Shown here in pieces: positions 20,294 to 23,467 of a stretch of DNA of 38,689 nt (position 1 is the stretch's first letter; each line of letters starts with the position of its first letter). Source of the DNA: Thermodesulfovibrionia bacterium (GTDB lineage: Bacteria > Nitrospirota > Thermodesulfovibrionia > Thermodesulfovibrionales > SM23-35); assembly GCA_041478735.1 (NCBI GenBank), contig JBGOWS010000001.1, forward strand, positions 1 through 38,689, given 5' to 3'. The notes below the pieces were generated by a model. It was not told where the DNA came from. It ran no database searches and saw only the letters and a program-made list of their open reading frames with translations. The translations under genes were made by a program, and so were the position numbers.

Positions 20294-20450
20294 TGCAAAT
20301 ATAGAAAAATAGTAATAGTTCACCCCCACCCCTACCCTCCCCCATCAAGGGGGAGGGCAATTATTATTAGATTTGCTGATAAATATTCCCCCTCCACTGG
20401 CGGGAGGGGGTTAGGGGGAGGGGTGCTGAACTATTACGAAAAATATTTGC
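20294..20450. repeat. G/C-rich palindromic REP-like element: two inverted units between convergent genes
   Basis: GCAAATAT...GTAATAGTTCACCCCCACCCCTACCCTCCCCCATCAAGGGGGAGGG plus an inverted second unit (CCCCCTCCACTGGCGGGAGGGGGTTAGGGGGAGGGGTGCTGAACTATTAC...ATATTTGC). Contains local hairpins CCCTCCCCC/GGGGGAGGG and CCCCCTCC/GGGAGGGGG. Confidence 0.8.
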
Positions 20451-20478: not shown

Positions 20479-20859
20479 CTAGTCTGCAATCGAGCTTCTT
20501 AAACCTGCTGCAAGGTTCAGGTTGATATTAATGATAATGTTGAGTTTTCCCGGATCAGGATAAGCCATAACATTAATTATCCGCTTGTCGATAAAAAGAC
20601 TTAAGCTGAGTATATCATCCCGCAGTTTTTTGGGTAGCGGATTATCCGGTTTTGCGAGTTCTGACTGGAATATGCTCCAGATCTGCTGATTGAATCTGAG
20701 GGCTTCGTTAAGCTTTGCGTCACGGTCTTTAGCATCCCATTTGCCCTGGCAATCTTTCAGCAGATGAGCTGCTTTTGTGAGGACCATGGCCTCCAGTTCA
20801 CGGCCTGAAATCGTGGTCTTCTGGACATCCCTATATGCCTGTAGTTGATTTGCGTACAC
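20479..20859 (-). CDS. flaF: Flagellin synthesis regulator FlaF
   Basis: AYRDVQKTTISGRELEAMVLTKAAHLL...LRFNQQIWSIFQSELAKPDNPLPKKLRDDILSLSLFIDKR matches the FlaF family pattern. Sits next to flbT and the flagellin gene. Confidence 0.8.
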   Translation of the reverse strand: MYANQLQAYRDVQKTTISGRELEAMVLTKAAHLLKDCQGKWDAKDRDAKLNEALRFNQQIWSIFQSELAKPDNPLPKKLRDDILSLSLFIDKRIINVMAYPDPGKLNIIININLNLAAGLRSSIAD

Positions 20860-21238
20860 TATTAATTACCTCCTGTTCATAGTCTATCAGTTTTCTGGTC
20901 AGTTTAAGTGCCTGATAATATCTGCTCTGCAATATATGGCCGCTGATCTCGTGGAGCAGCGGTTTTGTGCTGGGTGCAGCCTCGACAATATCCTTTACCA
21001 GTTCCCAGTAAGTCTTGTGATGATCTGCCAGGTTTTTTTCATTAATATACATCAACTGTATCACGAGATAAATCCTTTTGCATGGGGAATCGGCATCCTT
21101 TAAGGTCATTATGTCCTTTTCACGAAGGATCGGGACATTGTTTTCAACCACCAGATTGGCCTTGGCAGCGCCGTTCACAACTACAGCGCCGCCGATGATC
21201 AGTTTTTCATGTGGTTTGAGCGTTATTTTTAGTGCCAT
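20831..21238 (-). CDS. flbT: Flagellar biosynthesis repressor FlbT
   Basis: MALKITLKPHEKLIIGGAVVVNG...NVPILREKDIM matches the FlbT N-terminal signature. Overlaps the flaF start by 29 nt. Confidence 0.8.
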   Translation of the reverse strand: MALKITLKPHEKLIIGGAVVVNGAAKANLVVENNVPILREKDIMTLKDADSPCKRIYLVIQLMYINEKNLADHHKTYWELVKDIVEAAPSTKPLLHEISGHILQSRYYQALKLTRKLIDYEQEVINSVRKSTTGI

Positions 21239-21244
21239 CAGCGT

Positions 21245-21730
21245 TCAGATCTTTATGTTAAGGATCGATCCCGGCTGCGCTTTATCCGTGAATTCGGTAT
21301 TGTCCTGCTTCAGTTTATCCCTCAACCCGAAAAGTTTATCAAGCGCCAGGGATATATCTTTGTCAGTTGAGTCCTCAGATAGCATCTTCCCTGAGAACAT
21401 CTTCTTCAGATTGGCATCAATTGCCGACTTCTCAACTTCTTCCTGTATCCCCTTGATTTTCTTGATAAGGTCAAGTCTCTGGTAAGTGCCCGGGGGGAAG
21501 AAAGGGGGATAATGTGTCAGGATTATGTCAAGTTCTTCCTGCAGGTAATTTACCGAGATGGTTATCCCTTGTGCCTGCATCTGCGGAGTACTGATCTCAT
21601 TCTCTGACATACCGGTACTGACCTGACTGGCGGAAAAGCCGGACCTGATCTCAACATTCGAATTGCTTTTATCCACAAGGCGACTCGCATTCTGCGTGAC
21701 CTGATTTGTATAAATACTATTAATATTCAT
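21245..21730 (-). CDS. Hypothetical 161-aa protein in the flagellin operon
   Basis: Clean ORF with RBS AGAGGG, lying between flagellin and flbT. I recognise no family; it does not look like FlaG, FliS or FliW by eye. Confidence 0.55.
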   Translation of the reverse strand: MNINSIYTNQVTQNASRLVDKSNSNVEIRSGFSASQVSTGMSENEISTPQMQAQGITISVNYLQEELDIILTHYPPFFPPGTYQRLDLIKKIKGIQEEVEKSAIDANLKKMFSGKMLSEDSTDKDISLALDKLFGLRDKLKQDNTEFTDKAQPGSILNIKI

Positions 21731-21796: not shown

Positions 21797-22969
21797 TTAT
21801 CCGAACAACCTCAGGACCGACTGTGCTGCCTGTGATGACAGACTCAGAGCTGTTGTGCTTAGAGCCTGACGTGTCTGGAGCATCAGCATATTTGCCCCTT
21901 CTTCGTTCATGTCTGCGAGCGTTAGTTTGTCCGCGCCCTCTGTAAGTGTCGCAACTAAGTTAGCAGTGAAATTGTCCTGTATTTCTATTATACTAAGGTT
22001 GGTGGCCAGCTTTGAGGCCTCTGATCTCAATAATGGGATTGCTGTTTCCAGTTTGCCGAGGTCCGTGCTGATTTCCGTATTCACACTCCATGCCCAGTTT
22101 TGGCCCGATGTAGTATCTGTGGCTGTCGAGCTCAGTGATAAATCACTTGCTGTTGCGCTGAATCCTTTAACTGATATTGCGCTGTTTTCAAAGGATACAT
22201 TCAGGTCTTCGTTCATCAAGAGATTTACGCCTTTGTATCCGGAAGAATTGGCAACAGCATCGATCTGATGCATGAGGCTGTTATACTGCTCTGACAGCGC
22301 CCTTCTCTCTGAAAAGACTGAATAGCCGTCAGTATCAGTTAGAACAGTTGCCTGCGCGCCGCTTTCATCATAAAAGCTGGTGTAATTCCCTTGCGTAATA
22401 GCTGTGTTGCTTGATTTTGCCTCGAGAACAAGTGTTGTCCCTGTAGCAGTTGCAACCATATCAGTAACCTCTGCTTGAGCGTTAATTAATGCTGCAAGGT
22501 TCGAAAGAGTAGTTTCAATGTCATTGGAATCAGCAACAAACTGTGTCGTAGGAGATGTAATAGCACCGGTTGTTGCAACAGCAGTATAAAGAGTGCCGCC
22601 TACGGTAACTGTGTTGGTGGATGATATAGACGTAAACTGAACCTTTATTTGGTTCTTGGCTGCTCCCTTTGCAGCTTGTGACAGAGCTTTTGCTGATTCA
22701 ATCAGGTCTGTGATGGATGAAATGCCTTTATCTGCAGCCTTGATGGTCTGGACCGACTCACCCATGCCTTCCTTGAGGGATGTGATATCATTTGCACGGC
22801 TCAGATGCGCGCGGGATGCAAAATAAGCAATCGGGTTATCAAGAGCAGAGTTGACCTTTTTGCCGGTTGCAAGGCGTCCCTGCGTTTTGTTTAAAAGATC
22901 AGATGTCTGCTGAAGATTTAATAGATTGGCCCGCATGCCAGTGGTTAAGGTAATATTATTGATAGCCAT
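21797..22969 (-). CDS. Flagellin
   Basis: Conserved N-terminus MAINNITLTTGMRANLLNLQQTSDLLNKTQGRLATGKKVNSALDNP and C-terminus ANMLMLQTRQALSTTALSLSSQAAQSVLRLFG. The central domain is Ser/Thr-rich. RBS AGGAG. Confidence 0.9.
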   Translation of the reverse strand: MAINNITLTTGMRANLLNLQQTSDLLNKTQGRLATGKKVNSALDNPIAYFASRAHLSRANDITSLKEGMGESVQTIKAADKGISSITDLIESAKALSQAAKGAAKNQIKVQFTSISSTNTVTVGGTLYTAVATTGAITSPTTQFVADSNDIETTLSNLAALINAQAEVTDMVATATGTTLVLEAKSSNTAITQGNYTSFYDESGAQATVLTDTDGYSVFSERRALSEQYNSLMHQIDAVANSSGYKGVNLLMNEDLNVSFENSAISVKGFSATASDLSLSSTATDTTSGQNWAWSVNTEISTDLGKLETAIPLLRSEASKLATNLSIIEIQDNFTANLVATLTEGADKLTLADMNEEGANMLMLQTRQALSTTALSLSSQAAQSVLRLFG

Positions 22970-23148
22970 GGTAATTCTCCTTTTCTATGAATATTTTTGG
23001 CAATTCTTGCCAAATTGTTTTTACTTTGCCGATAAAATCGGCGATTTTTCAATCAGTTACCATATCCTTATTCTTTGCCACCTCCTTTACCATATCCTTA
23101 TTCTTTGCCACCTCCTTTTGGACCTTAATCTTTTTTCATTTAACTTTT
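22970..23148 (-). promoter_or_regulatory. Flagellin 5' leader (~170 nt) with two hairpins and repeated GGA motifs
   Basis: Hairpins TTGGCAA-TTC-TTGCCAA (22997-23013) and GCCGAT-AAA-ATCGGC (23028-23042). The mRNA strand carries AAGGAGG/AAGGAU motifs in each 30-nt repeat unit and again at the SD. Confidence 0.5.
23057..23116. repeat. Perfect 30-bp tandem duplication inside the flagellin leader
   Basis: TTACCATATCCTTATTCTTTGCCACCTCCT at 23057-23086 is repeated exactly at 23087-23116. Confidence 0.95.
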
Positions 23149-23175
23149 ATATCGGACATTTTTCTTAAAACTTTA
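23149..23175 (-). promoter_or_regulatory. Sigma-28 (FliA) promoter for flagellin
   Basis: The minus strand reads TAAAGTTT-N11-TCCGATAT against the consensus TAAAGTTT-N11-GCCGATAA. Confidence 0.7.
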
Positions 23176-23212: not shown

Positions 23213-23358
23213 TCTTGCAAAAGTATCAAATGTTCACCCTCCCCAACCCCTCCCATCAAGGGAGGGGGACACACCCCTACACCCCTCTCAAGAGGGGATT
23301 TACCCTCTCCCCTTGTGGGAGAGGGCAAGAGTGAGGGGTAAAATAGACTTTTGCAAGA
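23213..23358. repeat. Second copy of the G/C-rich palindromic REP-like element family
   Basis: Terminal inverted repeat CTTGCAAAAGT / ACTTTTGCAAG. The core TTCACCCTCCCCAACCCCTCCCATCAAGGGAGGGGG is homologous to the 20321-20358 unit. Extra hairpins CCCCTC/GAGGGG and CCCTCTCCC/GGGAGAGGG. Confidence 0.8.
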
Positions 23359-23440: not shown

Positions 23441-23467
23441 TAAAGTTTTTTTGAAATATTCCGATAA
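23441..23467 (+). promoter_or_regulatory. Sigma-28 (FliA) promoter for the small-ORF / c-di-GMP / motAB operon
   Basis: TAAAGTTT-N11-TCCGATAA, 15 of 16 consensus positions. It is divergent from the flagellin promoter. Confidence 0.7.

Follow-up and report, generated by a model that had tools for sequence, protein, structure and literature searches.

The window considered here, a stretch of 38,689 nt from contig JBGOWS010000001.1 of a Thermodesulfovibrionia bacterium (assembly GCA_041478735.1), contains a flagellin gene whose long 5′ leader is the subject of this analysis. The source is a metagenome-assembled genome (MAG) of a Nitrospirota bacterium with 316 contigs, a size of 2.27 Mb, 91% completeness and 40.6% G+C, in which flagellin is present as a single copy according to tblastn. 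The gene order is flagellin, a 161-aa open reading frame (ORF), flbT and flaF, and flbT and flaF are thus linked to flagellin, as in Caulobacter-type control. Upstream of the start codon, the leader carries three hairpins (HP1, HP2 and HP3), a perfect 30-nt tandem repeat and a Shine-Dalgarno (SD) sequence. Two covariance models were built in this analysis, R1 for HP3 together with the SD, and R2 for HP1. In the direction of transcription, the features of the locus are the following.

23150..23175, minus strand: sigma-28 (FliA) promoter, with the -35 element TAAAGTTT (23175-23168), an 11-nt spacer and the -10 element TCCGATAT (23157-23150), found as an exact pattern match
22970..23142, minus strand: flagellin 5′ leader of ~173 nt, with homologous leaders in the related loci L005-L166
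23120..23124, minus strand: HP1 5′ arm GGUCC, within the R2 match at 23090-23127 (42.2 bits)
23089..23118, minus strand: repeat copy 1, consisting of the HP1 loop with a GGAGGUG box (23115-23109), the HP1 3′ arm GGAU (23097-23094) and 5 further bases, from Tandem Repeats Finder (TRF), the sequence and the R2 match
23059..23088, minus strand: repeat copy 2, with a second GGAGGUG box (23085-23079) and a second GGAU arm (23067-23064), an insertion relative to all relatives
23028..23042, minus strand: HP2, GCCGAU-UUU-AUCGGC followed by AAA, read from the sequence
22996..23014, minus strand: HP3, UUUGGCAA-GAA-UUGCCAAA (as DNA, TTTGGCAA-GAA-TTGCCAAA), apex AAGAAU, from R1
22975..22986, minus strand: AGAAAAGGAGAA, an AGAA followed by the SD GGAG (22980-22977), 7 nt before the ATG (22969-22967), from seed alignment A4 and part of R1
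21797..22969, minus strand: flagellin gene, 390 aa, Pfam Flagellin_N and Flagellin_C
21245..21730, minus strand: 161-aa ORF between flagellin and flbT, no Pfam match
20831..21238, minus strand: flbT, 135 aa, Pfam PF07378, E = 1.6e-44
20479..20859, minus strand: flaF, 126 aa, Pfam PF07309, E = 3.9e-33

The sigma-28 pattern has only two matches in the window, where 0.01 would be expected by chance, and the second of them is a divergent twin at 23441-23466. The genome has a gene for FliA (238 bits against a cut-off of 189.6 bits), and a sigma-28 promoter is found at the matching position in ~40 related loci. Transcription is inferred to start at about position 23142, which would yield a leader of ~173 nt and agrees with the initial annotation, in which a leader of ~170 nt was placed behind a promoter of this type; the promoter itself is near consensus. 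Relatives have 125-155 nt between the -10 box and the ATG, and the window has 179 nt, which corresponds to 149 nt plus the 30 nt of one repeat unit. The GCCGAT of HP2 was also considered as a second sigma-28 -10 element and was rejected, as the -35 match is 2/8 by eye.

The architecture of the leader was derived by reading the upstream regions of ~50 related loci, which share a fixed order: a sigma-28 promoter, 25-45 nt, HP1, HP2 with AAA behind it (in ~40% of leaders), HP3, a spacer of ~10 nt, CYUAGAAAAGGAGAA and the ATG. The loop of HP1 is 20-30 nt long and purine-rich, and it begins with an SD-like box, GAAAGGAGG(UG), which is extended to GGAGGUGA in half of the family. HP3 takes the form NNGGCA-AGAA-UGCCNN, and its apex, which is AGAA in most family members and AGGA in some, lies 20-30 nt before the start codon; in the window, HP3 ends 26 nt before the ATG. 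The invariant positions in the HP3-SD region are the GG of the stem, the AAG-A of the apex and the AGAA immediately 5′ of GGAG, and the AGAA-SD columns of AGAAAAGGAGAA are invariant in seed alignment A4. With over 100 loci in Nitrospirota, Desulfobacterota and their relatives, the comparison indicates that the leader is a member of a conserved, so far undescribed family that accompanies flagellin-flbT-flaF cassettes. The best relatives of the flagellin itself are found in Nitrospirota, Thermodesulfovibrionales and Desulfobacterota MAGs, and not in Alphaproteobacteria, and in nearly all related loci flbT and flaF lie directly downstream of flagellin. A semi-conserved GAAGGCA motif is also present at about +10 to +20 from the predicted start in L013, L045, L062, L071, L075, L081 and others, and is weak in the window (AAAUGAAAAAA).

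In 534 kb of genome loci R1 identified 49 sites, and in 283 kb of metagenome loci it identified 66; every one of them is on the coding strand and immediately 5′ of a flagellin start. Its match in the window (22967-23019, 63.5 bits, E = 1.6e-16) is the sole match in the whole genome. In the R1 alignment, 87.8% of the cells of HP3 are paired and six of its eight pairs are compensatory (63 cells), with a covariation score of 0.423 compared to 0.164 in shuffles and at most 0.118 with a slid partner. Similarly, all five pairs of HP1 are compensatory in the R2 alignment (27 matches, 24 distinct sequences), where 88.5% of the cells are paired and the score is 0.629, compared to 0.231 in shuffles and at most 0.165 with a slid partner. 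A GCCG...CGGC hairpin at the HP2 position occurs in 39 of 99 leaders and in 2% of shuffles, and its inner pairs vary between AU, GC, UA, GU and CG. The hairpins are real conserved RNA structure. HP2 and the strongly covarying, SD-proximal HP3 are the two hairpins noticed in the initial annotation, and both proved to be conserved beyond the window. Neither the window nor any of ten related loci matches an Rfam 15 family at the gathering threshold, and at a permissive threshold only chance-level matches (E > 1) were found in the leader. RNAalifold predicted no pairs on MAFFT whole-leader alignments, a result that reflects the misalignment of the variable loops, and covariance-model alignments were used instead.

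The distribution of the leader was determined in an even sample of 301 Nitrospirota genomes (G000-G367), in which Flagellin_N was found in 165 genomes, CsrA in 148, FlbT in 24 and R1 in 29. All 24 FlbT genomes have R1 and none of them has CsrA. Strong R1 matches (E < 1e-6) are confined to these 24 genomes and one fragmented genome without either regulator, while the four weak matches in CsrA genomes are not on the flagellin contig, and the motif is missing at flagellin in the CsrA-type flagellated genomes. The motif thus occurs once per genome and only before FlbT-type flagellin, which ties the leader to flagellin of the FlbT/FlaF type and not to flagellin as such. Taken together, these presence and absence patterns show a clean split of the flagellated Nitrospirota, apparently between a CsrA-type and an FlbT-type flagellin checkpoint. 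The earlier proposal that the leader is a regulatory RNA tied to the FlbT/FlaF cassette is borne out in this respect, by the conserved hairpins as well as by the presence of R1 in every FlbT genome. The Flagellin_N E-values range from 1e-9 to 1e-21 for the FlbT-type proteins and from 1e-35 to 1e-47 for the CsrA-type proteins, and these far lower scores suggest that the FlbT-type flagellins form a divergent clade.

A search for CsrA (PF02599) in this genome, which is 91% complete, was negative, although control genomes were detected, and neither FliW (PF02623) nor RNase J (TIGR00649) was found in this genome. CsrA is also absent from 47 of the 49 genomes that hold related loci. With CsrA, FliW and RNase J not found here, CsrA is rejected as the partner, and the part of the initial annotation that invoked a CsrA encoded elsewhere does not hold. 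FlbT appears to be the best candidate partner of the leader, with its binding being putative. Within the literature library searched, no paper connecting FlbT with these phyla was found.

TRF detects one array in the leader, at 23057-23118, with a period of 30, 2.1 copies, 100% matches and no indels, and thereby supports the previously noted perfect duplication with an AGGAGG and an AAGGAU in each unit. In the mRNA sense the unit reads AAAGGAGGTGGCAAAGAATAAGGATATGGT / AAAGGAGGUGGCAAAGAAUAAGGAUAUGGU, and its two 30-nt copies occupy 23059-23118 on the minus strand, with two more matching bases (AA) after copy 2. Each unit contains AGGAGG and AAGGAT, and the unit has no other occurrence in the 2.27-Mb genome. 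The duplication copied the HP1 loop with its GGAGGUG box, the 3′ arm GGAU and the few bases that follow, and left the 5′ arm uncopied. Since the 5′ arm was not duplicated, R2 matches copy 1 in full (23090-23127, 42.2 bits) and copy 2 with its loop only (23068-23088). AAGGAU had been proposed as a GGA site of the CsrA type, but is more plausibly the 3′ arm of the conserved HP1. The duplication also creates a 14-codon ORF (MVKEVAKNKDMVTD) without a usable SD; an upstream ORF was rejected as a feature of the leader, since it is not conserved and the short ORF of the one-copy relative is different and unrelated. In addition, the repeat (AATAAGGATATGGTAAA) matches contig C264:4086-4103 exactly over 17-18 nt, in the ribosome-binding site and start of an unrelated ORF (MVKSNDRLKEI...), with borderline significance, and this match was discarded as probably due to chance.

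The closest relative found, L087, has a flagellin that is 88% identical and a leader with exactly one unit (...GGUCCAAAAGGAGGUGGCAACAAAUAAGGAUCUGGUAAAUGAUUG...), while its promoter, flanking GC-rich repeat element, HP2 and HP3 are all the same as in the window. In a MAFFT alignment of 22 leaders, the window has a 30-nt insertion relative to all 21 others. The single copy in L087 makes the duplication recent and lineage-specific, as the initial annotation had suspected, and the comparison of leader length and copy number that it called for gives the same result (125-155 nt compared to 179 nt from -10 to ATG, and one copy in L087). The repeat arose recently, by a tandem duplication of the slippage type with a 2-nt microhomology (AA).

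An internal-repeat scan of 100 leaders revealed further duplications in the family. L090 (Ga0315273_10025068), with a flagellin that is 64% identical, contains a perfect 19-nt x 6.2 array of AAGGAGGTGAAGTAAATAT at 262-378 inside the HP1 loop; the GGAGG box was amplified there independently and with a different unit. Two diverged boxes are present in each of L061 and L100. In L017 (~2930-2970), it is the SD-proximal hairpin HP3 that lies in a 13-nt x 2.5 tandem duplication (ccggtaagaattaccggtaagaattaccg). Two independent and still-perfect amplifications of the box suggest that box number is under selection or that the site is prone to slippage.

These data are best explained, with a confidence that we place slightly above even, by a sigma-28-transcribed, three-hairpin flagellin leader that is read by FlbT and in which the HP1 box has recently been doubled. 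A single flagellin mRNA would be transcribed from the sigma-28 promoter, with this leader as its 5′ end, and FlbT, together with FlaF and unexported flagellin, would set flagellin translation or message stability through the leader. FlbT would bind the purine motifs in the HP3 loop and beside the SD and thereby occlude the SD, with the HP1 box as an auxiliary site further upstream. Binding to purine motifs is favoured because the layout, with one purine motif in an upstream loop, another in a loop close to the SD and a third at the SD itself, resembles the two-site arrangement of CsrA on the hag and flaA leaders (PMC4894983). As both the box and the 3′ arm were duplicated, there are now two GGAGGUG boxes 30 nt apart and a single 5′ arm with two alternative partners. 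Our best guess is that the doubled box would change the amount of regulator or the number of 30S subunits that are captured, and that flagellin output would shift as a consequence. An extension of this idea, which we regard as speculative and rather unlikely, is that the count of GGAGG boxes in the HP1 loop tunes flagellin output, as a dial that is turned by slippage. FlbT would then have come by convergence to recognise purine motifs (GGAGG, AGAA/AGGA), both at the SD and in hairpin loops, and lineages would retune the checkpoint by gain or loss of boxes (2 here, 6.2 in L090).

Several points weigh against FlbT as the reader of the leader and against an effect of the doubled box. The HP1 stem of the window is weak (GUCC/GGAU, 4 bp with one G-U pair), and the HP1 box, as an 8-10-nt complement of the anti-SD, would bind 30S regardless of any protein. 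A perfect and young duplication may be neutral, and the coupling of the motif to FlbT could reflect a cassette inherited as a block and not a functional interaction. Furthermore, R1 has no match in the alphaproteobacterial FlbT loci L019-L037, L039, L043-L047, L053, L059 and L065, and the motif is therefore not universal for FlbT. A CsrA-like fold of FlbT finds no support either: BLASTP gave no alignment between the two proteins, hhalign gave E = 0.049 with a probability of 1%, an FlbT profile search of the PDB gave no meaningful match, and Foldseek against the PDB returned nothing with E < 1, whether with the single-sequence model or with the model based on an alignment. The latter (AlphaFold, pLDDT 93.6) has five short strands and four helices. 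As CsrA is an intertwined dimer, which a monomer model may miss, these results amount to a lack of support and not to a disproof.

A first rival explanation is that the leader is functional and the 30-nt duplication a recent slippage event without regulatory effect, which will decay or be lost. The copies are 100% identical with a 2-nt microhomology at the junction, only one lineage among ~100 leaders has the duplication while the closest relative has one copy, and copy 2 lacks a 5′ arm of its own. On the other hand, L090 has amplified the same box independently and with another unit (19 nt, 6.2 copies), older and diverged double boxes are present in L061 and L100, and the duplications in these leaders affect conserved modules and not spacers, the module being HP3 in L017 and the HP1 box in the window and in L090. 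A neutral accident is a serious contender, albeit one that we hold to be doubtful. A somewhat less probable explanation is ribosome capture, in which the GGAGGUG boxes pair with 16S rRNA at its 3′ end but do not initiate translation, as in a stabilising SD (STAB-SD) or standby site, and FlbT acts elsewhere or not on the box. A parked 30S subunit would then stabilise the flagellin message, which is abundant, or feed the real start, and a doubled box would mean more stability or translation. The box AAAGGAGGUG is an 8-10-nt complement of the anti-SD and stronger than the real SD (AAGGAG), a complementarity that rests on the near-universal CCUCC, since the MAG lacks the 16S 3′ end. AAAGGAGGUG has no start codon 4-12 nt behind it, and there is no conserved upstream ORF. 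The position of the box, ~110-150 nt upstream of the ATG in a large single-stranded loop, resembles that of the cry3A STAB-SD (PMC4113751), and half of the family lengthens the match to GGAGGUGA. However, RNase J, the nuclease blocked by STAB-SD, was not found in this genome, the box is ~27 nt from the predicted 5′ end instead of adjoining it, and, with most of the real SD predicted to be unpaired, there is no obvious need for a standby site. In addition, neither the covarying stem around the box nor the restriction of the leader to FlbT-type flagellin genes is explained by ribosome capture.

The other alternatives carry less weight than neutrality or ribosome capture. Self-inhibitory long-range pairing, in which the repeat GGUGGC...UAUGGUAA pairs with the start region UUACCAUGGCUAUC to mask the AUG and the duplication provides a second masking copy, is improbable. 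Minimum free energy (MFE) and centroid folds do pair copy 1 with the start region, with an unpaired probability of 0.01-0.02 for the AUG, and the duplex of -13.4 kcal/mol has z = -3.0 compared to shuffles. Nevertheless, such pairing was rejected as a feature of the family, as the mean z over 79 leaders is 0.09 with 5% below -1.64, as by chance, and L087 (z = -1.1) folds into HP1 instead. Far less credible still is CsrA-type control, in which a dimer encoded elsewhere would bind the GGA motifs (AGGAGG, AAGGAU and the SD) as on Bacillus hag and Campylobacter flaA. It could draw on the GGA in the HP1 loop box and at the SD (the HP3 apex of the window is GAA), on the AGGA in the HP3 loop of some family members and on AAUAAGGAUAU, which we take to resemble the CsrA SELEX consensus. 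Against this, most HP3 loops are AGAA, and neither CsrA nor FliW was detected here; with CsrA in none of the 24 FlbT-type Nitrospirota genomes and in two of the 49 with related loci, this gene-content evidence means that CsrA-type control is essentially already refuted for this genome. We consider it equally remote that the second copy is an assembly artefact and that the true sequence has a single one. The source is a 316-contig MAG, and a Logan contig with the same flagellin, L168, stops 49 nt before the ATG and therefore does not cover the repeat. Yet a separate assembly record of different length (L167, JGI 3300052989, 30.5-kb contig) has an identical flagellin and an identical two-copy leader, and short tandem repeats tend to be collapsed by assemblers rather than created.

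The favoured FlbT-read leader can be compared with several known systems. In Caulobacter crescentus, FlbT and FlaF control fljK mRNA through its 5′ UTR (Anderson and Gober 2000, as cited in PMC4347634 and PMC4894983). FlbT acts there on the flagellin 5′ UTR, with the recognition element and the mechanism listed as unresolved (PMC4347634), which precludes a direct comparison of sites. The locus described here resembles that of Caulobacter in having flbT and flaF beside flagellin and in lacking CsrA and FliW. Control in Caulobacter is thought to be post-transcriptional and to operate via the flagellin leader, and the same is proposed here. The Caulobacter flagellin promoter is of the sigma-54 type. 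In contrast, the present system has a Nitrospirota host, a sigma-28 promoter and a 125-180-nt leader with three conserved hairpins. The alphaproteobacterial flagellin leaders in the data set look different from those of this family and are not homologous to them by R1. In many of the alphaproteobacterial loci L034-L065, YAGAA-N2-3-GGAGAA is found at the SD or a nearby hairpin loop contains AGAA; these contexts echo the invariant AGAA of the leader family, and a loose AGAA..GGAG near the SD is the sole shared feature.

In Bacillus subtilis hag and Campylobacter jejuni flaA, the leaders are subject to a CsrA-FliW-flagellin partner switch (PMC4894983, PMC6529632). The present leader shares with them a purine/GGA motif in an upstream hairpin loop, a second one at the SD and a flagellin message of the sigma-28 type, and by analogy a similar logic, the coupling of flagellin synthesis to export, is likely to apply here. 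It differs in that CsrA and FliW were not found and most HP3 loops are AGAA without the GGA needed by CsrA. In addition, CsrA and FlbT are mutually exclusive in Nitrospirota (0/24) and have no detectable kinship. The STAB-SD of Bacillus thuringiensis cry3A is SD-like and located close to the transcript end at -129, where it binds 30S and blocks RNase J1 (PMC4113751). Similarly, GAAAGGAGG is SD-like, lies far upstream, does not initiate and is complementary to the 16S 3′ end. However, STAB-SD acts against RNase J1 from a position adjoining the mature 5′ end, whereas the box is ~27 nt from the predicted start and lies in the loop of a covarying hairpin, in a genome where RNase J was not found. 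CsrB/RsmZ-type sponge RNAs are tandem arrays of GGA hairpins, separate small RNAs that titrate CsrA. They resemble the present case in that a purine motif is multiplied by tandem duplication (6.2 copies in L090), and differ from it in that the array here forms part of an mRNA leader and the genomes concerned do not have CsrA.

The family gives access to a compact RNA that is supported by covariation and in which three elements are candidates for recognition by FlbT, and its one-to-one coupling to FlbT, never with CsrA in the sampled phylum, makes the question of the FlbT target directly testable. A natural allelic series is also available, consisting of the one-copy L087, the two-copy leader of the window, from which little else differs, and a six-copy distant relative. 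If the number of boxes does act as a dial read by FlbT, the leader would be the first defined RNA target for this protein.

Of the neighbouring genes, the 161-aa ORF has counterparts at the same position in L009, L018, L055 and L071, with 39-47% identity, and flaF and flbT overlap by 29 nt (20831-20859). The divergent sigma-28 promoter at 23441-23466 on the plus strand faces a small ORF and genes for REC, REC-GAF-HD-GYP, PilZ and PAS-kinase proteins and motAB. The two divergent promoters are separated by a GC-rich palindromic element at 23213-23358, and another is present at 20294-20450. The element belongs to a repeat family that is dispersed over the MAG, with 142 BLAST segments on 85 contigs, and it is also present upstream of the L087 flagellin.

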